From the IMG/VR virus record IMGVR_UViG_2609459864_000003, positions 1-9,527 of that record: 9,527 nucleotides of DNA; one strand, written 5' to 3'. The notes beneath the pieces are model-generated. The model did no database searches, was not told where the DNA came from, and saw nothing but the letters and a program-made list of their open reading frames with translations. The DNA comes from a virus (lineage: Duplodnaviria; Heunggongvirae; Uroviricota; Caudoviricetes). The stretch's first letter is position 1, and every line of letters starts with the position of its first letter. The translations under genes were made by a program, and so were the position numbers. Of this stretch, positions 1-9,527 are shown piece after piece.

Positions 1-224
1 ATGGTCCCGGCATGTGAAGGCGGAAAACCTTCAACCAGCAGGGTGACGCTGTACTGACCATGCTCAACATCCATGCTGTAACGTCCGGCTTCATCCGGAT
101 TTTCAGAGGCCACCGTGTTCACCACCACCGTGCTGCTGGTTCGTCTGGCCTTCAGCACAATGGTGCAGTTCTGTACTGGTTTTCCTGTGCCATCTTTAAG
201 CACGCCAGAAATTTTTACTGTCAT
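1..224 (-). CDS. stf: side tail fibre protein Stf, N-terminal fragment (gene continues beyond window start)
   Basis: Minus-strand ATG at 222-224 opens a frame still open at base 1. Translation MTVKISGVLKDGTGKPVQNCTIVLKARRTSSTVVVNTVASENPDEAGRYSMDVEHGQYSVTLLVEGFPPSHAGT matches my recollection of the lambda Stf (orf-401) N-terminus (MAVKISGVLKDGTGKPVQNCTIQLKA...). It sits directly downstream of lom, as in lambda. Absent from the ORF track because there is no stop inside the window. Confidence 0.7.
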   Translation of the reverse strand, partial: MTVKISGVLKDGTGKPVQNCTIVLKARRTSSTVVVNTVASENPDEAGRYSMDVEHGQYSVTLLVEGFPPSHAGT

Positions 225-238
225 ACTTTTCCACCAAT

Positions 239-270
239 AAAAAAAGCCCGCAGCAGTGACGCCACGGGCT
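239..270 (-). terminator. intrinsic terminator downstream of lom
   Basis: Inverted repeat agcccg (245-250) / cgggct (265-270) with a 14-nt loop. On the minus strand the hairpin is followed by a U7 run (plus-strand A-run 239-245). Lies between the lom stop (376) and the stf start (224). Confidence 0.5.
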
Positions 271-375
271 TCAGGACAGTGTAACTTTACGTTTCCTCAA
301 ACGCAGTTCACCCCATAAGGTGGATGAACCTGCGTATCATAACAATATTTACAGAAGATAAATCGGCGTCTGTTG

Positions 376-975
376 TCAGAAACGGTATCCGATACCAACA
401 ATAAATGCATCCGTTCGCCAGTCGCCACTACCGGAACCTTCATAAGCAAGGTCAATGGTCACGGATTCGGTCGGGTTAAACTGCACGCCAGCCCCCCATG
501 CCAGAGACGTGTTGCTGTGGCGACCGTCATCACTTCCGGTCAGCACATCGTGCGTTTTCCCCTTGTTGTCAGTTACGCGGAGATAATCCCCGGAGAAAGT
601 CGACACACGGCTGTAAGCCATACCCGCCATCGCATACGCGCTGAACCATTCATTCACGCGCACAGACGGCCCCGCCATCACGCTGAACCAGCGGTTACGC
701 ACGGAATCTTCATGCCAGCGGGTATCGCTGTAGTGCGTTTTTTGCTCATCCTCAGCATTGGCATAACTGAAGGACGTAATCAGCCCCAGCGCGTCCGTAA
801 ACTCATAACGGTATTTCACGTTAATCCCGTTCAGATTATCGCTGCCGGGAGCGTTCGTACGGGCATGAAGATACCCCGCGCTCAGTGTGGACTGATGTTC
901 AGACGCCCATGCAGGCGCACCGGATACGGCCAGACAGATGGCTGCGGACAAAATGGCTGCACAAACTTTACGCAT
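376..975 (-). CDS. lom: Lom outer-membrane protein (Ail/Lom/PagC family)
   Basis: 199-aa ORF; MRKVCAAILSAAICLAVSGAPAWASEHQSTLSAGYLHA... is near-identical over its length to lambda Lom as I recall it. Has an N-terminal signal peptide and C-terminal aromatic residue typical of beta-barrel outer-membrane proteins. SD gagagg lies upstream of the ATG at 973-975. Lies immediately downstream of J, as in lambda. Confidence 0.93.
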   Translation of the reverse strand: MRKVCAAILSAAICLAVSGAPAWASEHQSTLSAGYLHARTNAPGSDNLNGINVKYRYEFTDALGLITSFSYANAEDEQKTHYSDTRWHEDSVRNRWFSVMAGPSVRVNEWFSAYAMAGMAYSRVSTFSGDYLRVTDNKGKTHDVLTGSDDGRHSNTSLAWGAGVQFNPTESVTIDLAYEGSGSGDWRTDAFIVGIGYRF

Positions 976-996
976 AATTACCTCTCGCTTTTCTGC

Positions 997-1023
997 AATA
1001 AAAAAGGCGCCATTTCTGGCGCC
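997..1023 (-). terminator. intrinsic terminator between J and lom
   Basis: Perfect 7-bp stem ggcgcca (1006-1012) / tggcgcc (1017-1023) with a 4-nt loop that reads GAAA on the minus strand, followed on the minus strand by UUUUUUAUU (plus A-run 997-1005). Starts about 20 nt after the J stop codon. Confidence 0.65.
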
Positions 1024-1042
1024 CGTATATGGGTTATAAAAT

Positions 1043-4000
1043 TCAGCTGATACTGATGCCTGCGGTGGCTTTCTTCATCACCACAACCAGCAAATCGCTG
1101 ATACTTGCTGTGGGATACCAGTTATTCACCAGCCATGCTGACACCGAAAACTCCAGTGTCATGTGACCGTGACCGGCAGGCATATCAATAACACCACTGT
1201 AAATCAGCGTATTATCCAGCGCGGTACGGTTATAAATTTCAGCACCGTTTTTCCGCACTATCAGACGGCATGAGGAGTAAATATCAGTATGCTCTTTCTC
1301 ATGTTTAGCGCCGCTGAATGCCACCGCCGGAATAACAATCTGCCGGTCAAACGGCTGATCGTCATAAACCCTGACGGTAATGGTCCCTGATGGCCACCGC
1401 TCCGGTGCACGGGAGTCCCGGGGGAAAGCTTTGCCCACTGTTTTAACGAGATCGCCTTCAATCTGGTTGGCGGACAGTTTTCCCAGAACCCGACAGTTTT
1501 CGTTAATCGTGACGTTGTTGAGCGTCCCGGAGTTCGCATTCACGTTACCGCTGATATCGGCATTTTTCGCCGTCAGCCGCCCGTCCGGTGTCAGGGAAAA
1601 TGCCGGAGGATTACCGCCGCTGGTAATGGTGGGAGCCGTCAGGTATTTCAGGAACACTTCGTTCATGAATATCTGATCGCCCTGACCAACAAACATCGGC
1701 TTTGTGTTGCCATTCGCAGGATTAATCATCGCAATCCGGTCAGCAGCCAGAAGCACCTGACTCTGCATACCTGCTGGCGTATTCTCAATACCGGCTCCGA
1801 TACCCGCAATATAAAGGCGTCCGTCCTTCATCTGCTGCAGTTTCACGGCCCACATGCTGTTCAGGTTATTATTTGTATCAACCTGAACTTTCTGTATCTG
1901 CTGGATTGCCGCACTCTGATTTTCCAGTTTTTTATTGACGGTCTGCGTGATTTCATTGCTGACATTCGTAATGGACGTCCTGATTTCAGCCAGATCAGGC
2001 GCAAGCTGACCGTTATCAATCTGTGTCCACAACTCCTGAGCCAGATGGGTTTTCCCTATCTCTCCTTTGAAAAAATCCAGATAGCCGGATGCATCATCAC
2101 TCGGCTGGCCAACAGCCTCCACAAATGCCGATTTGCCAACAGTATTCACACTGCGGATATAAAAATAATAATCATGGCCCGGTTTGATATTGATACTGGC
2201 AGCTATCCAGTACAGCGCCGAGCCAAGATAGCGGGCTGCGGTTTCAACCTGCCTGATATCCGCAATCCGCTTTTCCGAGAACCAGAACTCAAACTGTACC
2301 GTCGGGTCATAAACGGCAAGATGCGGCGTGGCGGGTATCTGAAAATAGCCCGGCGTCAGCTCAATCCGCGACGGTGCTGCCGGTGCGGCAATCCGGAAGG
2401 TGGTGGTGGCAGGTTCACCCTGCTGGCCATAGCTGTTTATCGCCCGCACCGTCAGGGTGTATTCCCCGAGCGGCAGGCCGCTGAAACGGTGCTCCGTGTC
2501 TGCGGTGATGGCGGTGGTCACCAGTCTGGCATCCGTTCCCTTACCACTGGTCAGGCGCAGACTGAAGCGCACACCCTTCACCACCCGCGGCGTGTCCCAT
2601 TTCGCCTGCGCCAGATACTGGCCGTCAGCTGCGCTCACCTCCACCGTCAGGTGCTGCACTGCCGGTGGGATGACGCTGTTCAGGGAACCTGACTGCGGCT
2701 CAAAGCGGGCACCGTTATCCACGATGGCTTCTTTTTCCGGTACGTGCTGCACCGCCGTGATGGCAAAGGTGCCGTCCGTGTTTTCCCGGATGGAGACACA
2801 GCGGAACAGGCGACGGCGCAGTGACGGCAGGGAGAGTCCCCACACCCCGTATGTCTCCACACCATCAGGCAGGGTACTGACCTGTATCCGGTCCGGCGCG
2901 GGGTGTTCGGTGATGTCCACACTCACCGGCTTACCGCTGCCGTTAATCAGGTTCACCGTGGCGGCACCGGTCTCCGGAAGTGTCACTTCACGGTCCAGCG
3001 TCAGGGTGCGGGTGGCAGCATCAATGGACAGGACACGTCCGCCGGTCAGAGTCCCGGCATAGTCGTTATCACAGATTTCAATGATGTCACCGGGTGTGTG
3101 CCGCAGCCCCTGAGACCCGAGCGTGAAATCCACCGTCTGCGTTTCCAGCAGTTCGGTCTTTATCACCCACAGTCCGGCACGGTGGGCCTGACCGCGGCTG
3201 GTACAGCCGAACGCGTCCATCTTCAGCAGGTTGCGTCCGTAGCGCAGTATGGCTTCCGGGTCTTCCACCAGTTCCGTGGAGGTCTGCCAGCCGTTCTGCG
3301 GGTCGGTGTAATTCACCTCCACCGCCGTGTGCCGGTCCTTCAGGGCACTGAAGCTGTAGCGGAATCCCACGCCGTTATCATCCACCACCACATCGCTGTT
3401 GGTGTACGGCCACACCACATCCGACGGGCGGTCCTGAACGAACGTCAGCGTCTGACCGTTCCATACCGGCATACAGCGCATCGCAGAGCAGAAATCACTG
3501 AGAACGTCCCACGCCTTACGCTGTTGTGCCAGGTACGCATTAAAGGTCATCCGCGGCTCTGTCCCCCCGAAACCATCCGGGACCGTCTGGTCGCAGTACT
3601 GCCCGATGGCATACAGCGCCCACTTGTCCACATCCGCCGCCCCCAGACGTTTTCCCATGCCGTAGCGCGGGTGAGTCAGCATGTCCCACAGGCACCAGGC
3701 CGGGTTGTTGCTGTATGCCGGTTTCAGACTGCCGTCCCAGATACCACTGTACGTGCGTTTTTCCGGGTCATAGTTTGACGGCACCTGGATGATGCGACCG
3801 CGGATATGGTAGTTCACCGTCATCTGCTGGCCGCCGAACTGCTCCGCATCCACCTGCAGCCCCACAATGGCCGTGTTCGGGTAATCGAGGCTGAGGGCTT
3901 TCTTAATCTCGTATCCGTGTCTGCGGTAGCACTGAATTAGCCACTCGGCCTGTTCTTCAGTGCATGGGGGATGCTGGAACCAGTCAGATTTGAAAGTGCG

Positions 4001-4072
4001 GGAACGCCGCCCGTGCCTGCTGGCAGGGGCGGCAGAGTTATCCGAATTGTAAAATTTGGTATCGTGCGCCAT
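1043..4072 (-). CDS. J: tail-tip host specificity protein J, N-terminally truncated fragment
   Basis: The track ORF 1043..4201 aligns by eye with lambda J from about ORF residue 107 ([20 protein letters not shown]... versus lambda KQCYPNTALVGVQVDSEQFGSQQ...) through the C-terminus, including the conserved [13 protein letters not shown] and [30 protein letters not shown] blocks. The first ~106 residues do not resemble J. The hok terminator lies at 4141-4170, so I place the plausible start at the internal ATG 4070-4072 ([10 protein letters not shown]...). Roughly 200 N-terminal residues of a full-length J and all upstream tail genes are absent. Confidence 0.85.
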
Positions 4073-4140
4073 CTGTTTTCTCTGCTGGCGCAGCAGGTGC
4101 CAGTTGTTCAGGCTGACGGATGGATTGTAAACCAGAACGA

Positions 4141-4170
4141 CCAGAAAAAACAAAACCCGCCGAAGCGGGT
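4141..4170 (-). terminator. hok mRNA intrinsic terminator
   Basis: Stem aacccgc (4153-4159) / gcgggtt (4164-4170) with a 4-nt loop, followed on the minus strand by UUUUGUUUUUUCUGG (plus 4141-4152). Lies about 70 nt downstream of the hok stop. Confidence 0.6.
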
Positions 4171-4239
4171 TAAGTGCGGGTGCGTTGAGGATGCCTGACA
4201 CATCAGCGGTGGCGAGGGATTTCTCCCCCGCCGGGTCTC

Positions 4240-4395
4240 TTACTCCTCAGGTTCGTAAGCTGTGAAGACAGCGACCTCCGTCTGGCCGGTTCGGATTCGT
4301 ACCTCGCAGAGGTCTTTCCTCGTTACCAGTGCCGTCACTATGACGGTTAAACAGATGACGATCAGGGCGATTAACATCGCCTTTTGCTGCTTCAT
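4240..4395 (-). CDS. hok: Hok/Gef family type I toxin (51 aa; HokD/RelF-like or HokC/Gef-like)
   Basis: My own translation of the minus strand gives [51 protein letters not shown]: a single transmembrane helix plus the conserved RKDLCE and VAVF(T/M)AYE motifs of Hok/Gef proteins. SD ggaga lies upstream of the ATG at 4393-4395. Below the 60-aa cutoff of the ORF track. Confidence 0.93.
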
Positions 4396-4451
4396 AGCCT
4401 GCTTCTCCTTGACCTTTCGGTCCGTAAGAGGCTAATCTCTATGTGTCGCAT
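4392..4451 (-). CDS. mok: mok-like leader ORF (19 codons) translationally coupled to hok
   Basis: Minus-strand ATG at 4449-4451 opens [19 protein letters not shown]; its stop TGA overlaps the hok ATG (AUGA). The position matches the mok reading frame of plasmid R1 hok/sok, though it is much shorter here. Confidence 0.4.
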   Translation of the reverse strand: MRHIEISLLRTERSRRSRL

Positions 4452-4510
4452 AGATATGGCCTCAGATTAATGTTAAGCGTCTTGCAGGACGCGTAATGTT
4501 AACTGGGGCT
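4440..4510 (+). ncRNA. sok: putative Sok-like antisense RNA; ends approximate
   Basis: Plus-strand promoter-like hexamers TTGACC (4409-4414) and TAATCT (4433-4438) with an 18-bp spacer, pointing opposite to hok. The transcript would be antisense to the mok start region of the hok leader, as in known hok/sok loci. A hairpin gcgtct-tgca-ggacgc sits at 4478-4493. Exact 5' and 3' ends cannot be fixed from sequence. Confidence 0.35.
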
Positions 4511-4570
4511 TTTCTCTATCTGCCTTTTGGTGTTCATGCCTGAGACAGATAGCCTCAAGCACCCGCAGTC

Positions 4571-4599
4571 ATTCTACTTAACTAAGATTTCCCCGCAAA
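4571..4599 (-). promoter_or_regulatory. putative hok promoter
   Basis: Read on the minus strand: -35 TTTGCG (plus 4594-4599), 17-nt spacer, -10 TAGAAT (plus 4571-4576). It sits just upstream of the gcttgaggct 5' motif that aligns with the 5' end of R1 hok mRNA as I recall it. Confidence 0.4.
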
Positions 4600-4653
4600 C
4601 CGTTTTTGTCCGGCACAGTAAATATCCAACTAAACCAATGGCGTTCGCTGTAT

Positions 4654-4833
4654 TTACCGCCAGTATTCAATGCACATGACCGCCATGAACACCCCTAAAA
4701 AAAGGGCATTTATATATCCAAATATTAATATCAAAACATCAACTTTTTCCATATACCTTGCTGTGAAGATGATGGGCATACATGATACGAACAACCAGAA
4801 CGCAACAAACAAAAACTGCAATGCGTTTTTCAT
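4654..4833 (-). CDS. hypothetical small membrane protein (59 aa, two predicted hydrophobic helices)
   Basis: Internal ATG (4831-4833) of track ORF 4654..4872 is preceded by a strong SD aggagg. Product MKNALQFLFVAFWLFVSCMPIIFTARYMEKVDVLILIFGYINALFLGVFMAVMCIEYWR is dominated by two hydrophobic segments. Lies in a markedly AT-rich stretch (about 4680-4980). Confidence 0.5.
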   Translation of the reverse strand: MKNALQFLFVAFWLFVSCMPIIFTARYMEKVDVLILIFGYINALFLGVFMAVMCIEYWR

Positions 4834-5062
4834 TATTCCTCCTACAATCAATGTGCAATTACATTTAAACACACCTCAATTTGGCCGGACATATAAATAT
4901 CTAAACCAGAAAAAATCACTTACATAGCGTTACAAACTCTTTAGTCTAAATATTCATCGTAAAACATTCCCCATACTTATCAGCCCGTTCTGCGCCAGGT
5001 AGCTCATTGCCTTATCTGGGAATCTGTAATCAGGTTTCCGGATGCTGGTGGATTTTCGCGTT

Positions 5063-5320
5063 TTAGTTGTTCATAAAAGTGCACAGCTTTAACCAGTTCT
5101 TCTGATGTAACCGGGACTGGCGGGGCAGTGAATAAGGCCTGAATTTCATAGTTCGGCCTGTCGTTACAATCCTCTTTTTTCGGTACATATTTCCAGTCAC
5201 CAGACCACTACTTCCCCTGAAAGTCCGTAACGCCTTTTTTTTCACGTAGCGATATCGCCATGCCACTGTTTTTGCTTGCCCCGCCGTTTCATGCCCTTCC
5301 TGATAATTAACCTCGCTCAT
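5063..5320 (-). CDS. hypothetical ORF with Ea22-like start (MSEVNYQ...), possibly a frameshifted pseudogene
   Basis: ATG 5318-5320 overlaps the stop of the upstream 58-aa ORF (ATGA). The first codons agcgaggttaattatcag resemble the ea22-like start at 8185 (agcgaaattaattaccag). After homopolymer runs (A8 on the coding strand = plus T-run 5227-5234; A6 = plus 5171-5176) the product becomes an implausible K/R-rich string, while another frame carries a more protein-like open stretch ending at 5004. Confidence 0.3.
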   Translation of the reverse strand: MSEVNYQEGHETAGQAKTVAWRYRYVKKKALRTFRGSSGLVTGNMYRKKRIVTTGRTMKFRPYSLPRQSRLHQKNWLKLCTFMNN

Positions 5321-5493
5321 TCATCGCCCCACTCATCACAATATGCTTCGACCGGAGTTTTTCCTGCTTCATAATCATCACGCCATGCTTCAGCATCAGC
5401 AGCACTGCCACCACGTAACTCTGCATAGTCCATTAACAGTTCATGCCATGCTTCAAAACTGACGTTGTATTTAGTTGAACCAAAATCAGCCAT
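5317..5493 (-). CDS. hypothetical small acidic protein (58 aa)
   Basis: Not in the track (below 60 aa). ATG 5491-5493 overlaps the stop of the upstream ORF (ATGGCTGA). Translation MADFGSTKYNVSFEAWHELLMDYAELRGGSAADAEAWRDDYEAGKTPVEAYCDEWGDE. The stop overlaps the next start. Confidence 0.5.
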   Translation of the reverse strand: MADFGSTKYNVSFEAWHELLMDYAELRGGSAADAEAWRDDYEAGKTPVEAYCDEWGDE

Positions 5494-5668
5494 TTTGCTC
5501 TTCCTCTTCGTCTTTTATTTCGTGATATGAGTAATTGCAGTAGTTAAAGAAAATATCTTTTGCTTCGTCATGTATTTCATCAGGCGTCGCATCATCATCC
5601 ACTTCGAATTCATCCTCGAAATCTCCACCGGCTATTCCCGTTTCAATAATTATTTTAAACTTTCGCAT
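5486..5668 (-). CDS. hypothetical small highly acidic protein (60 aa)
   Basis: Track ORF; MRKFKIIIETGIAGGDFEDEFEVDDDATPDEIHDEAKDIFFNYCNYSYHEIKDEEEEQNG, about 40 percent D/E. An SD AGGAGG is present, but it is separated from the ATG by a GC hairpin (see the regulatory feature at 5676-5697). Confidence 0.55.
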   Translation of the reverse strand: MRKFKIIIETGIAGGDFEDEFEVDDDATPDEIHDEAKDIFFNYCNYSYHEIKDEEEEQNG

Positions 5669-5675
5669 TTAACTA

Positions 5676-5697
5676 CCGCCCTTTCGGGCGGCCTCCT
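5676..5697 (-). promoter_or_regulatory. SD-hairpin-AUG translation initiation structure
   Basis: Minus strand reads AGGAGG (plus 5692-5697), then hairpin ccgccc-GAAA-gggcgg (plus 5676-5691), then uaguuaa, then AUG (plus 5666-5668). Linear SD-to-AUG distance is 23 nt; folding the GNRA hairpin would bring them into normal spacing. Confidence 0.4.
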
Positions 5698-5761
5698 GAT
5701 GTTCTGATGGTGCAGAAATCCCTCCGGTTAAGGATTAAATTTTTAACAGAGCTAAATTTAA

Positions 5762-6118
5762 TTATTCAGTTCTGGATTTTGTCGCCCTGCGTATCCGCGC
5801 TTTCGCGTTACGCTCAATCTGAATTAGCTTTTCTATATTTTTTCGCCTTTCCCGCTCCTCCTGGCGCAAGTGCCTTACATCATCTGCCAGTCTGGTTTCT
5901 CTTTTCGCCACAGAGAGCATCCAGTCAAATGGTTCCACAACTGCACCGCAGATTTTACAGCGGACCTGACGCTCTTTTTCGTCAACCCGGACAGAGGCGT
6001 GATGACAATATGGTCTTTCCGATGGCTCATAAAGAAAATTAACCTGATTACGAGGGTCATCCTCTTTTACCGGAAATAAAACGATATTGCTTAACTCATC
6101 CTCTGGTTTTATTTCCAT
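5762..6118 (-). CDS. hypothetical protein with putative zinc-ribbon (C-HH ... C-x2-C) and basic coiled-coil C-terminus (118 aa)
   Basis: Internal ATG 6116-6118 of track ORF 5762..6175 has SD aaggagagg; the track start at 6175 is a GTG inside the upstream scar. Product MEIKPEDELSNIVLFPVKEDD...PYCHHASVRVDEKERQVRCKICGAVV... followed by an R/K/E-rich tail. Confidence 0.6.
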   Translation of the reverse strand: MEIKPEDELSNIVLFPVKEDDPRNQVNFLYEPSERPYCHHASVRVDEKERQVRCKICGAVVEPFDWMLSVAKRETRLADDVRHLRQEERERRKNIEKLIQIERNAKARIRRATKSRTE

Positions 6119-6239
6119 GCTCCTCTCCTTTGATGCGAATGCCAGCGGTAATTGAAGCCTGATAGCTAATTTCACTCACAGTACCGCCTCCTGAAAATTT
6201 AATGAACAATTCAATACGTTCTTTGGTAATAGTGGTCAT
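6096..6239 (-). pseudogene. deletion scar: chimeric 47-codon ORF built from gene-start and gene-end fragments
   Basis: ATG 6237-6239 with SD aaggag. Product MTTITKERIELFIKFSGGG-TVSEISYQASITAGIRIKGE-EHGNKTRG. Its first codons match the start of the 135-aa gene at 6922 (MITITKG...). An internal aggaggcggtact-GTG-agtgaaattagctatcag copies the RBS and start of the ea22-like gene at 8185, fused directly to a copy of the ea22-like 3' end (AGIRIKGE). Confidence 0.4.
6123..6148. repeat. 26-bp gene-boundary repeat, copy 1 (ctctcctttgatgcgaatgccagcgg)
   Basis: Exact 26-nt identity with 7438-7463. Here it lies inside the scar, read in a different frame relative to the next start codon because of a 1-nt indel just outside the repeat. 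Confidence 0.8.
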
Positions 6240-6249
6240 GTGTTACTCC

Positions 6250-6513
6250 TTAACCCGCAGTGCTTTCAACTGATGAGGGGAACAAAATCTTTTCATCAAA
6301 CCCTGCATTCATATCATGAACAGCAACACACCAATCCATCGACGAACGATTATCAAGAGCCTCCATGATTTCATCCATGCGGCGCAGGTCATACAGGTAA
6401 ATGCTTTTATCGCCAATGGTGTAAAAACCAATTTTTTTCGGTGATGGGCAGCGATCAAGAACGTCCTGTAATTCGTTCAACCATGCCCGTTCTTTTTTTG
6501 TTAAAGTTGCCAT
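6250..6513 (-). CDS. hypothetical protein (87 aa)
   Basis: Internal ATG 6511-6513 of track ORF 6250..6573, preceded by SD aaggagag within the conserved junction gccatatcactctccttt (6509-6526). Product MATLTKKERAWLNELQDVLDRCPSPKKIGFYTIGDKSIYLYDLRRMDEIMEALDNRSSMDWCVAVHDMNAGFDEKILFPSSVESTAG. Confidence 0.6.
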   Translation of the reverse strand: MATLTKKERAWLNELQDVLDRCPSPKKIGFYTIGDKSIYLYDLRRMDEIMEALDNRSSMDWCVAVHDMNAGFDEKILFPSSVESTAG

Positions 6514-6514
6514 A

Positions 6515-6922
6515 TCACTCTCCTTTCCCATGAAGCATAGCGGCGCGGCAGGCGTTCCATATTTCGGCAGCAATATCGCGCTCGCTATCGGTTAATTTGT
6601 ACGTGGAAACATAGCCAGAGAGCATTTCTACGTTTTCCGGAGTTGCTTCTTCCGGCACTATCGGCGCTGGAGGGGCGGCAAATAGATATCCGCCAAAGTC
6701 AGGAAGCTCTCCAATGGCCTGTACGAACTTTTGTTTGCCTACGTCAACTCCTAATGGGTAATGAGCTATAATCTTTGCCACCGGCTCTGCTTCCAGCGAT
6801 ACCAGTGCAATTCGTGCCAGTTCTTCCGCTTCTTCTGCTGGCAGTACAACGTTGCTACCCGGTCCGTATGTTTCGCGCCACTGCTTGATTGTCAGCAGTC
6901 GCCCTTTGGTAATAGTGATCAT
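6515..6922 (-). CDS. hypothetical protein (135 aa)
   Basis: Track ORF; the start ATG overlaps the stop of the upstream nuclease gene (ATGA at 6919-6922); SD aaggaa. No motif I can recognise. Confidence 0.7.
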   Translation of the reverse strand: MITITKGRLLTIKQWRETYGPGSNVVLPAEEAEELARIALVSLEAEPVAKIIAHYPLGVDVGKQKFVQAIGELPDFGGYLFAAPPAPIVPEEATPENVEMLSGYVSTYKLTDSERDIAAEIWNACRAAMLHGKGE

Positions 6923-7434
6923 GCCGCGTTTCCTTCTTTCTTATTAACAATCACACCGTCATATATTTCATTAAGGTGCCCTCTCAACTCCATGCGCCTT
7001 AATGCAGATAACATGTAATCGCATTCAACCTGCTTATTCCCAGTAAATGGCTTATCGTCAGGATTACCCCAACAGCAATTACCCCTGGGCCATCCATGTA
7101 CTTTCCGTACTCTTCCGTTAACAACGTGAAGTAATCCCCAGCCGGGAGGTAAATCCTCAACTGAAATAATTTCCGGCTCACTAATAAAGAATCGCCAGTC
7201 GCCCATGCCAAGTGAGGGATTTTTACGGAAACGCTTTTTTCTATCTGCCAACAAGTCAGCACGAGAACACTTCGCCTCTATCAGGCATGATGCTGAATTT
7301 CTGAATCCCATAGCATCTGGCTGTTCTCCGGTACTGGTTACAGCAACAAAGCGGTCATGAAAGCAAACCTTGAACCCGTTGCGCTTAAGGAACTTGTACG
7401 CAATCTGACAGAGTTCGCGGTGTGTTAACGCCAT
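6919..7434 (-). CDS. putative PD-(D/E)XK-type nuclease (171 aa; VRR-NUC / MmcB-like motif arrangement)
   Basis: Track ORF with SD aaggagag. The product contains ...VAVTSTGEQPDAMGF(x9)CLIEAKCSRADL...: an acidic residue, a PD dipeptide and an E-x-K triad at the spacing typical of restriction-endonuclease-fold nucleases. Family assignment is from motif only. Confidence 0.7.
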   Translation of the reverse strand: MALTHRELCQIAYKFLKRNGFKVCFHDRFVAVTSTGEQPDAMGFRNSASCLIEAKCSRADLLADRKKRFRKNPSLGMGDWRFFISEPEIISVEDLPPGWGLLHVVNGRVRKVHGWPRGNCCWGNPDDKPFTGNKQVECDYMLSALRRMELRGHLNEIYDGVIVNKKEGNAA

Positions 7435-7435
7435 A

Positions 7436-8185
7436 TCACTCTCCTTTGATGCGAATGCCAGCGGCGCGGATTGCAGCGATGACTTCAGAAACTTTGTATG
7501 CCATTACCGTTTGGTAATCATCGTGAAAATCTGTTCGATGAAGCATGCTGCTACGTTCCGGGAGCGATATTTCCCGAGCATCCAGTTCCTTAACGCGTTC
7601 CTCCAGTTCGTAGACCCTGCATTGTTCTCTATCATCAATCAGATATAACCCAAGACATTCGCTTTCTACCCAACCGCCAAAATCATGATCGTAACGCTCA
7701 CATGAAAACTCACCGTCACCGTCCTTTGTTGGAATGGTGTAACTATCTAATGGGCCACCATATGTCGGCACATTCCCCAATGTTGGATGCTCAATCCACA
7801 TGAAAAATGCACGTCCGGTTATTGGGCAAATATCTGGCCGCCATTGGTTACGAACAGCCTTGGTTTCGGATAATTCTTCAGCGTGTTGTTTTACTTCCTC
7901 AAGCTCAACTCTCAGCTTCCCTACCGTTAGCGCAATATCCTCGTTCTCCTGGTCGCGGCGTTTGATGTATTGCTGGTTCCTTTCCCGTTCATCCAGTAGT
8001 GCCAGCACGGTTTCTGGTCCGGTCAGAAATTTGAAGGCATTGAGCGCATCAATATCCACACCGTAATCTTTAAGTTCCTGTTCACTTAACAAATCATCAT
8101 CAGTTGGCAACATTAACAGGCGTTCCATTGCTGGAATTGCACGTTCTGCTGCCTCACGCAGTGCCTGGTAATTAATTTCGCTCAC
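7436..8185 (-). CDS. Ead/Ea22-like family protein (249 aa)
   Basis: GTG start 8183-8185 preceded by a strong SD aaaggagg; the track's longer ORF to 8368 has no better start. N-terminus VSEINYQALREAAERAIPAMERLL...ETVLALLDERERNQQYI... matches the pattern I recall for Ead/Ea22-like prophage proteins. Central coiled-coil, cysteine-rich C-terminal half. Confidence 0.7.
   Translation of the reverse strand: MSEINYQALREAAERAIPAMERLLMLPTDDDLLSEQELKDYGVDIDALNAFKFLTGPETVLALLDERERNQQYIKRRDQENEDIALTVGKLRVELEEVKQHAEELSETKAVRNQWRPDICPITGRAFFMWIEHPTLGNVPTYGGPLDSYTIPTKDGDGEFSCERYDHDFGGWVESECLGLYLIDDREQCRVYELEERVKELDAREISLPERSSMLHRTDFHDDYQTVMAYKVSEVIAAIRAAGIRIKGE
7438..7463. repeat. 26-bp gene-boundary repeat, copy 2
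   Basis: Identical to 6123-6148. Here it encodes the C-terminus AGIRIKGE of the ea22-like protein plus the SD of the downstream nuclease gene. The overlapping 18-mer gccatatcactctccttt (7430-7447) recurs at 6509-6526. Confidence 0.8.
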
Positions 8186-8352
8186 TGGTTGCCTCCTTTG
8201 CGAAGCTCTGCGGCTAAATACTCCAACGCCATTATGTGGCGTGTTCCCCAACCAGGACGGTACGTTCACCGCGATGACGTATACCAAAAGCAAAACGTTT
8301 AAAACCGAAAATGGTGCCCGTCGCTGGCTGGAAAGAAACTCAGGTGAGTGAT

Positions 8353-8481
8353 ATGGATTTCGACACAATCATGGAAAAGGCTTACGAAGAATACTTCGAT
8401 GGTCTTGCCGAAGGCGAAGAAACTCTCAGCTTCAACGAATTTAAACAGGCGCTTTCCAGTTCGGCAAAATCTAACGGCTGA
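8353..8481 (+). CDS. ydfB: YdfB-like small protein (42 aa) of the dicB operon
   Basis: ATG 8353-8355 with SD aggtga. Product MDFDTIMEKAYEEYFDGLAEGEETLSFNEFKQALSSSAKSNG. Size and position (two genes upstream of DicF and dicB) match ydfB of the E. coli K-12 Qin prophage. Not in the track (below 60 aa); the overlapping track ORFs 8348..8557 (+) and 8299..8496 (-) have implausible composition. Confidence 0.6.
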   Translation: MDFDTIMEKAYEEYFDGLAEGEETLSFNEFKQALSSSAKSNG

Positions 8482-8510
8482 TAAGCGAAACAGCACCGCG
8501 AGGAATCAGT

Positions 8511-8729
8511 ATGCAGAAACGAGAACCCGTCATCATCGCGCCAGACTATACCGATGATGAACTTTATGAGTGGATGCGCCAGAAAATTAATGCAGTGCAG
8601 GATCTGAAATGGGCCAATGAAGCCAGGACTAAGCAGGCTGAAAATCTGTCCGCTCTGGAGCAGGATATCACCAGGCTGGAAAAAGCAGCGGCATTAAGCA
8701 TTGCCAGAATGGTTACATACCCGCGTTAA
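8511..8729 (+). CDS. ydfC: YdfC-like protein (72 aa) of the dicB operon
   Basis: Track ORF with SD gaggaa. 72 aa, the size of K-12 ydfC; it lies immediately upstream of the DicF precursor region. Confidence 0.7.
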   Translation: MQKREPVIIAPDYTDDELYEWMRQKINAVQDLKWANEARTKQAENLSALEQDITRLEKAAALSIARMVTYPR

Positions 8730-9067
8730 TAGCTAACCAACGAAGCTAAGGTTGGTAATTAAGGAGTTCTCCACGGGTCAGGTGGAGTGCGTGCGCCGGA
8801 CACGGGTGAACATCCGGCACTGACAGTTTACTGAAAGGATATGTCCCTGAAAAGTCAGGGCATAAAGCGAAAGCGCACGGCGAAATTGGTCTCTCTGTAC
8901 GGTGTCGTTAAATTTAGTTCGACCGTGCGCTTCCGGTTGTGGCACTCCGCGAAATGGCGCGGCGGTAAGTATGGCGGGGGTATTCCTTCCTCCGTTGAGG
9001 ACACCGGGTTGTCAGGTTGACCATACGCTTAAGTGACAACTCCGCTGCAACGCCCTCTGTTATCAAT

Positions 9068-9120
9068 TTTCTGGTGACGTTTGGCGGTATCAGTTTTACT
9101 CCGTGACTGCTCTGCCGCCC
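9068..9120 (+). ncRNA. dicF: DicF small regulatory RNA (53 nt; ftsZ-targeting sRNA of Qin-type prophages)
   Basis: tttctggtgacgtttggcggtatcagttttactccgtgactgctctgccgccc matches the DicF sequence as I remember it, followed by a T5 run (9121-9125). It is embedded in an ORF-free, hairpin-rich region between ydfC and dicB, exactly as in K-12. Confidence 0.8.
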
Positions 9121-9294
9121 TTTTTAAAGTGAATTTTGTGATGTGGTGAATGCGGCTGAGCGCACGCGGAACAGTTAAAACCAAAAACAGTGTTATGGGT
9201 GGATTCTCTGTATCCGGCGTTAATTGTTAACTGGTTAACGTCACCTGGAGGCACCAGGCACCGCATCACAAAATTCATTGTTGAGGACGCGATA

Positions 9295-9483
9295 ATGGAA
9301 ACGTTATTACCAAACGTTAATACGTCTGAAGGTTGTTTTGATATTGGTGTTCTGCTCAGTAACCGGGAGTTTACGGAAGATGCCATTAAGATGAGAAAAT
9401 ATGAACCTTATCTTCTCAATGATAATTCCATACTTTCCAGAATTGCCCTTCTTGAACTTGGTATTATCGGAGAACAGCAGTGA
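9295..9483 (+). CDS. dicB: DicB-like cell division inhibitor (62 aa)
   Basis: Internal ATG 9295-9297 of track ORF 9190..9483, SD gagga. Product METLLPNVNTSEGCFDIGVLLSNREFTEDAIKMRKYEPYLLNDNSILSRIALLELGIIGEQQ. The 62-aa length and N-terminus match my recollection of K-12 DicB; the C-terminal half appears divergent. Lies downstream of DicF. Confidence 0.8.
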   Translation: METLLPNVNTSEGCFDIGVLLSNREFTEDAIKMRKYEPYLLNDNSILSRIALLELGIIGEQQ

Positions 9484-9527
9484 CTTCAGCATTTGCACTG
9501 GTGATGACCGTTTTTCTTATAACGGGT
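9480..9527 (+). CDS. ydfD: YdfD-like protein, N-terminal fragment (continues beyond window end)
   Basis: GTG 9480-9482 overlaps the dicB stop (GTGA). The frame is open to the window end and encodes a hydrophobic N-terminus VTSAFALVMTVFLITG. Position after dicB matches ydfD of K-12. Confidence 0.4.
   Translation, partial: MTSAFALVMTVFLITG

Follow-up and report, generated by a model that had tools for sequence, protein, structure and literature searches.

The closest known system to the locus analysed here is the dicAC-dicBF locus of Qin, a defective lambdoid prophage of E. coli K-12, in which dicC, dicA, the operators and the promoter dicBp are retained directly upstream of ydfA and the genes follow in the order ydfA-ydfB-ydfC-dicF-dicB-ydfD. 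In lambda, ea22 belongs to the b2/early-left region, where leftward transcription from pL covers it in one operon with kil. For Qin, Ragunathan et al. (2023, PMC10448788) placed dicBp upstream of ydfA and its operators between dicA and ydfA; they traced DicF to processing of the dicBp transcript and detected no other promoter. In that study, deletion of dicA derepressed dicBp 22-fold, and no dicBF+ colonies were obtained with dicBp on, from which the authors inferred toxicity. According to the account given there, a promoter upstream of dicB had been proposed earlier (Cam et al. 1988, as cited in PMC10448788). More than one prophage context is already known for the dicBF locus, which also occurs in multiple copies (Balasubramanian et al. 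2016, PMC5069750).

The stretch of DNA analysed (the window) is the complete 9,527-bp contig JNRT01000062.1 of the draft E. coli assembly GCA_000704825.1, and carries what is left of a single Qin/Tritos-type lambdoid prophage, a type that integrates beside potC. Genes were assigned using the ORF list and Pfam, Rfam and PHROG profile matches, and promoter strength was scored in bits with our own position-weight scan, checked on reference promoters (Table 1). All genes of positions 1-8185 are on the minus strand, and the genes from 8233 onward are on the plus strand. The head-to-head arrangement of a leftward ea22 gene and a rightward dicB-type operon given in a preliminary description of this DNA was correct in anatomy and coordinates, as judged from the ORFs and the Pfam and Rfam matches. 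For the ea22-like gene, the Pfam PF13935 (Ead/Ea22) score was 102.7 bits against a gathering score of 27, which places its product in one protein family with lambda Ea22, and the gene is 100% identical to the WP_001289900.1 loci of E. coli Ecol_316 and OZ040035. What had been called an ea22 cluster consists of this one family member and a 17-codon stub of a second, and the rest of the block is made up of unrelated small accessory genes.

Table 1. Features of the window and promoter scores; reference promoters from related prophages are given in the last three lines.
Feature	Position	Strand	Evidence or score
Side tail-fibre gene, start only	window left end	-	
lom	376-975	-	
J-type tail-tip ORF, 1009 aa	1043-4072	-	
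Deletion junction 1	3882-3883		three-segment BLAST structure of window, alignment; 2-nt overlap
hok toxin gene	4240-4395	-	hokD annotated in relatives
hok mRNA leader/sok region	4393-4564	-	Rfam RF01794, 106.7 bits
Probable sok promoter, TTGACC-18-TAATCT	4409-4438	+	9.75 bits
hok promoter-like site, TTGCGG-16-TAGAAT	4598-4571	-	9.2 bits
Run of small phage accessory genes	between hok region and ea22-like gene	-	
ea22-like gene, 249 aa, GTG start, SD AAGGAGG	7436-8185	-	Pfam Ead_Ea22
Promoter-like site antisense within ea22, TTGAGC-18-TAATCT	8040-8069	+	7.9 bits
3' stub of second ea22-like gene, last 17 codons + stop	8182-8234	-	tblastn, alignment
ORF created by junction 2, 47 aa	8208-8351		
Deletion junction 2	8233-8234		flank homology limits, alignment, exact 30-mers
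ydfA (DUF1391) remnant, codons 13-51 + stop	8233-8351	+	alignments to relatives, Pfam, tblastn
ydfB, 42 aa	8353-8481	+	phrog_2061, E = 5e-27; annotated ydfB in relatives
Promoter-like site antisense within ydfB, TTGCCG-18-TAAATT	8467-8438	-	9.44 bits
ydfC, 72 aa	8511-8729	+	phrog_1744, E = 3e-39; annotated ydfC in relatives
Promoter-like site in ydfC-dicF spacer, TTGGTC-17-TAAATT	8886-8914	+	8.6 bits
DicF small RNA, terminator hairpin then T-run	9069-9120	+	Rfam RF00039
dicB, 62 aa, cell-division inhibitor family	9295-9483	+	Pfam DicB (PF05358), 129.5 bits, full length
ydfD (DUF1482) 5' end, first 48 nt	9480-9527	+	GTG at 9480 overlaps dicB stop; contig end cuts gene
K-12 dicBp, TTGACC-17-TAATCT			10.75 bits
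dicBp-equivalent sites, STEC384 and OZ040035			11.9-12.9 bits
Best site, Ecol_316 repressor-ydfA interval			8.6 bits

For comparison, intact relatives were used: the prophages of E. coli Ecol_316, OZ040035 and KS21, and the temperate phage Tritos (OV696610). In window orientation, their leftward arm comprises Q, RusA, DUF968, a small ORF, hok, accessory genes, DUF977, the replication initiator, YdaT and a Cro-like gene, and their rightward arm comprises a CI/DicA-like repressor, ydfA, ydfB, ydfC, DicF, dicB, ydfD, exonuclease, xis and int. Three ea22 paralogues are found among the accessory genes in Ecol_316 and OZ040035, and in KS21 and Tritos, whose maps are otherwise alike, other small genes take the place of ea22. 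In Ecol_316 and OZ040035 the ea22 genes follow the replication genes within the rightward, pR-type operon of the phage, and the dicB operon is the leftward, pL-type operon. This differs from lambda, where ea22 belongs to the pL operon; the premise of the preliminary description, that ea22 and dicB-type genes share one leftward operon, is thus true of lambda and not of this phage group.

On these maps, the ea22 and dicB arms are naturally divergent, about 4 kb apart, in the Qin/Tritos-type group. In the intact phage, two early operons diverge from the immunity region, and rightward in window coordinates the CI/DicA-like repressor gene is followed by a terminator, the pL-type promoter (dicBp) and then ydfA to int. 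Modules and orientation in the intact relatives are as in the window, except that the relatives keep an immunity/replication module of ~4 kb and the late genes, and the window is without both. The KS21 prophage adjoins potC, the same site as in a sister contig of the window (L006). A conserved leader of ~170 nt, running from the pL-type promoter to ydfA, was also observed in intact relatives (L003 11280-11455; likewise L001 and L002; ATACCAACCCACCCCGCCCCACAGAA...) and is absent in K-12 Qin. As a candidate for a known RNA element (for example an antitermination RNA) this leader was rejected, with a best Rfam match at E = 0.19 and a predicted fold that did not outdo shuffles (z = 0.12).

The stretch between the ea22 start and the ydfB start (8186-8352, 167 bp) had been described as a shared spacer. 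The abutment of the two gene blocks is real, but the stretch consists of two gene fragments joined at 8233/8234, rather than of an intergenic region. On the left, residues 131-147 of a 147-aa Ea22-like protein of OZ040035 match window 8235-8185 (tblastn, E = 9e-7), and the stop codon of this second ea22-like stub overlaps the GTG of the ea22-like gene. On the right, K-12 YdfA was matched by tblastn at E = 9e-24, and the remnant covers positions 12-48 of the 48 positions of the DUF1391 profile; it is without a start codon, ribosome-binding site, leader or promoter. The ORF from GTG 8241 earlier noted as a ydfA-like remnant is present, but ydfA homology begins before it, at 8233 (codon 13).

By BLAST against complete E. 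coli genomes, the left flank (7436-8234) is 100% identical to the Ecol_316 prophage and others, and the right flank (8233-9527) is 99.9% identical to the STEC384 prophage. In the junction alignment, the dinucleotide TA is the sole sequence common to both parental breakpoints. Both junction-flanking 30-mers are exact in the Ecol_316 prophage and in the same orientation (L002 9799 and 13811), that is, this prophage holds both breakpoint sequences verbatim, and its TA copies are 4,013 bp apart, giving 4,013 bp deleted. From these alignments the junction is read as the scar of a single illegitimate internal deletion of about 4.0 kb. The comparison was made with relatives of the parent prophage, and the three segments of the window match best in different strains, as is usual for mosaic lambdoid phages.

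The counterpart of the lost segment in Ecol_316 holds most of one ea22-like gene, the whole of another, a SAM methyltransferase, DUF977, an HTH replication protein (initiator), YdaT, a Cro-like regulator and the CI/DicA-like repressor gene, and ends with the repressor-ydfA interval and 37 nt of ydfA (12 codons). The illegitimate deletion, from inside the second ea22 gene to ydfA codon 12, took both regulators, the replication module and both early promoters with their operators. No repressor gene came up when the whole window was searched by tblastn with the repressor/Cro pairs of three relatives and with K-12 DicA and DicC as queries (best E = 0.07), and no HTH family was found by Pfam among the window ORFs scanned; the window accordingly holds no adjacent pair of a CI/DicA-like repressor gene and a Cro/DicC-like gene. 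Nor is there a dicBp with operators upstream of ydfA, homology to the relatives beginning only at codon 13. The reported loss of dicA/dicC-type genes and of the ydfA start was confirmed by these searches, and the comparison with K-12 Qin that had been suggested showed a matching gene order from which dicC, dicA, the operators, dicBp and 12 ydfA codons are absent here. For this structural account, comprising the deletion, its content and the lineage that carries it, our confidence is close to certainty.

The rightward genes are arranged on one strand in the order ydfA-ydfB-ydfC-dicF-dicB-ydfD of a Qin-type pL operon, with ydfA truncated, and the genes downstream of the ydfA remnant, as well as DicF, are still intact. 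DicF was detected at full length (model positions 1-52 of 52) with 76.7 bits against the RF00039 gathering score of 48, and is identical to K-12 dicF; in a three-way alignment of the window, K-12 and OZ040035, mean column identity over the ydfC-dicB interval was 98%. The dicB gene is annotated as such in STEC384 at 99.9% DNA identity, and its product is allele WP_000449172.1 of STEC384 and KS21, which we take to be only about half identical to K-12 DicB. Judging from the identity of DicF and the family membership of DicB, the two would be expected to inhibit division, DicF acting against ftsZ and DicB acting with MinC. In K-12, DicF builds up in stationary phase. The ydfD gene is complete in sister contigs, which run on through DUF1482, exonuclease, xis and int.

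Three further observations were made in this arm. An in-phase 97-codon ORF from GTG 9190 (9190-9483, plus strand) extends dicB upstream, the annotated product being the 62 aa from ATG 9295; as far as a title can tell, this longer frame fits that of Cam et al. In the DicF precursor region, G8980 is private to this contig, with T in six sister assemblies and K-12. One sister contig (L015) carries G9073T (window-equivalent position), which is position 5 of DicF itself.

Within the 167-bp stretch between the two blocks, the position-weight scan gave no promoter: the plus strand reached at most 2.0 bits and the minus strand 5.25 bits, where dicBp-type promoters score 10.8-12.9 bits. The statement in the preliminary description that no convincing promoter lies there holds. 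A consensus promoter scan of positions 7900-9527 returned zero plus-strand sites and one minus-strand site, fewer than in shuffles. In OZ040035, the repressor-ydfA interval contains a terminator and then TTGACT-17-TAGATT. With the immunity genes, the ydfA start and the promoter all absent, the question raised earlier of how DicB and DicF are controlled was a fair one. Since both are made from the dicBp transcript in Qin, the window operon would be promoterless and essentially silent; we consider it probable that it is transcriptionally orphaned and largely silent, and some read-through or cryptic transcription may enter it; the older proposal of a promoter upstream of dicB speaks against silence. 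Once dicBp is gone no repressor would be needed, and a repressor supplied in trans would find no operator. Because derepressed dicBF blocks division, only deletions that take dicBp along with the repressor should survive; loss of the repressor with the promoter kept would be toxic.

On the other side of the junction, the ea22-like gene is now the first gene of a leftward stump, which would be orphaned likewise, its pR-type promoter having gone. The best minus-strand promoter-like site of the window, antisense within ydfB, is found ~250 nt ahead of the ea22 start; since the deletion, the orphaned stump could draw on it for transcription, and it may equally be chance. Taken whole, the explanation that the junction is a deletion scar of one prophage, with dicBF left transcriptionally orphaned and largely silent, is the best available and is held with high confidence.

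The strongest competitor accepts the deletion as described, but has a cryptic promoter provide low, constitutive, repressor-independent transcription, from the site antisense in ea22, from that in the ydfC-dicF spacer, or from farther upstream with read-through. Most such transcripts would end at the DicF terminator and would yield DicF and little DicB; the terminator hairpin is complete, so that weak transcription into the operon would favour DicF over DicB, and all genes are intact. The candidate sites score 7.9 and 8.6 bits (Table 1), and that in the ydfC-dicF spacer falls within a 40-nt block (8883-8920) unlike K-12 and OZ040035, in a spacer otherwise ~98-100% conserved, with K-12 reading CTGGTT at the -35 position. 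However, scores around 8 bits turn up about ten times on each strand of the 9.5-kb window, which puts both sites at chance level and leaves them without value as evidence; the 40-nt block is identical in STEC384, where the regulatory region is intact, and hence is no adaptation to the deletion; and the K-12 experiments saw no internal promoter (PMC10448788). Transcription of this kind is therefore considered unlikely. Somewhat more doubtful still is a DicA-independent module, in which weak constitutive expression from a cryptic promoter would maintain permanent low-level DicF and some DicB; if true, DicF and DicB would act on host metabolism, division or phage entry without the prophage switch.

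The same prophage remnant carries a second scar, again with an overlap of only 2 nt. At junction 1, a 92-aa nin-region ORF (ATG 4072) passes in frame, after its first 63 codons, into the last ~946 codons of J, and the chimeric product is the 1009-aa ORF with J domains. The deletion at junction 1 took Q, the lysis genes, the head genes and most tail/morphogenesis genes. Between them, the two internal deletions leave the remnant without immunity, replication, Q, lysis and most morphogenesis functions, as in a cryptic lambdoid prophage, and the three retained blocks (dicB arm, ea22-hok region, J-lom) are colinear with the normal prophage map; integrase and the chromosomal flank potC-potD are present in sister contig L006. 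Between the junctions, the hok/sok module looks complete and is the sole one with recognisable promoters of its own: the hok promoter-like site stops 7 nt short of where the Rfam hok leader begins, and the probable sok promoter has the best plus-strand score in the window.

Pieces spanning junction 2 were searched by BLAST, with no junction-spanning match in 5,426 complete E. coli genomes; the junction 27-mer had no exact match in the GTDB representatives (one genome per species, with a single E. coli genome). It came to light elsewhere only by way of the 47-aa protein of the ORF that the junction creates, which is encoded exactly on 13 contigs; these belong to at least 10 NCBI draft assemblies, each deposited separately. 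In all 10 of the 10 loci fetched, the 60-nt junction is unchanged and the sequence runs colinear to the window at 99.75-100% identity, and at least 7 sister assemblies also carry junction 1 (3882/3883). The sister contig L006 runs from dicB through ydfD, exonuclease, xis and int into potC-potD-ymfA-ycfZ-cobB-nagK. The same ydfA-to-int arm is found beside potC in 734 complete genomes, and among the matches listed of those 734, similarity always ends at the equivalent of window 8233. The junction is a derived state common to one lineage and not an assembly artefact. Whether the arrangement is the normal order of a known phage family, as the preliminary description had allowed, has a divided answer: the orientation is normal for the Qin/Tritos-type relatives, and the direct abutment occurs in none of the complete genomes searched.

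Carriers are nearly clonal: their dicB arms differ at 0-2 positions, too few to test for selection, and gene intactness says nothing on selection either way. One carrier (L014, GCA_013073925.1) has an extra 535-bp deletion, equivalent to window 7182-7715, which joins a 171-aa ORF to the ea22 gene; the annotation gives the fusion as an Ea22 protein of 242 aa. The remnant is still decaying.

The absence of the junction from all complete genomes, together with the best matches of the three window segments in different strains, would also suit a fusion of two prophage remnants or an inversion of a segment, the readings offered in the preliminary description. Against this, the head-to-head orientation is native in intact prophages with both modules, and the map recurs, minus ea22, in KS21 and Tritos; a single prophage contains both breakpoint sequences exactly, equally oriented and 4,013 bp apart, for which one deletion suffices with no fusion or inversion needed; recombination between prophages normally proceeds via long homology, and here 2 bp are shared; and the dicB arm, ea22-hok region and J-lom have kept their normal order. 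Fusion or inversion is thus very improbable. An artefact of a short-read draft assembly, conceivable since the contig is short and its ends lie in repeated prophage sequence, has a negligible chance of being correct, as the same 60-mer with colinear flanks occurs in at least 10 separately deposited assemblies and a graph misjoin requires a shared k-mer, not 2 bp.

Prophage decay through internal deletion is commonplace, and the deletion scar described here is ordinary decay of this sort, with no new regulatory architecture. It is a clean example, in that one illegitimate deletion removed the switch and both early promoters along with the replication genes, and it shows a route by which the repressor of a toxic operon may be lost without the host being killed. 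It also corrects the map, placing ea22-type genes in the rightward operon of a widespread E. coli prophage group, unlike the leftward operon of lambda. The carrier strains would be natural 'promoterless dicBF' controls for work on DicF and DicB, and any DicF in them would expose a promoter missed by the K-12 studies.
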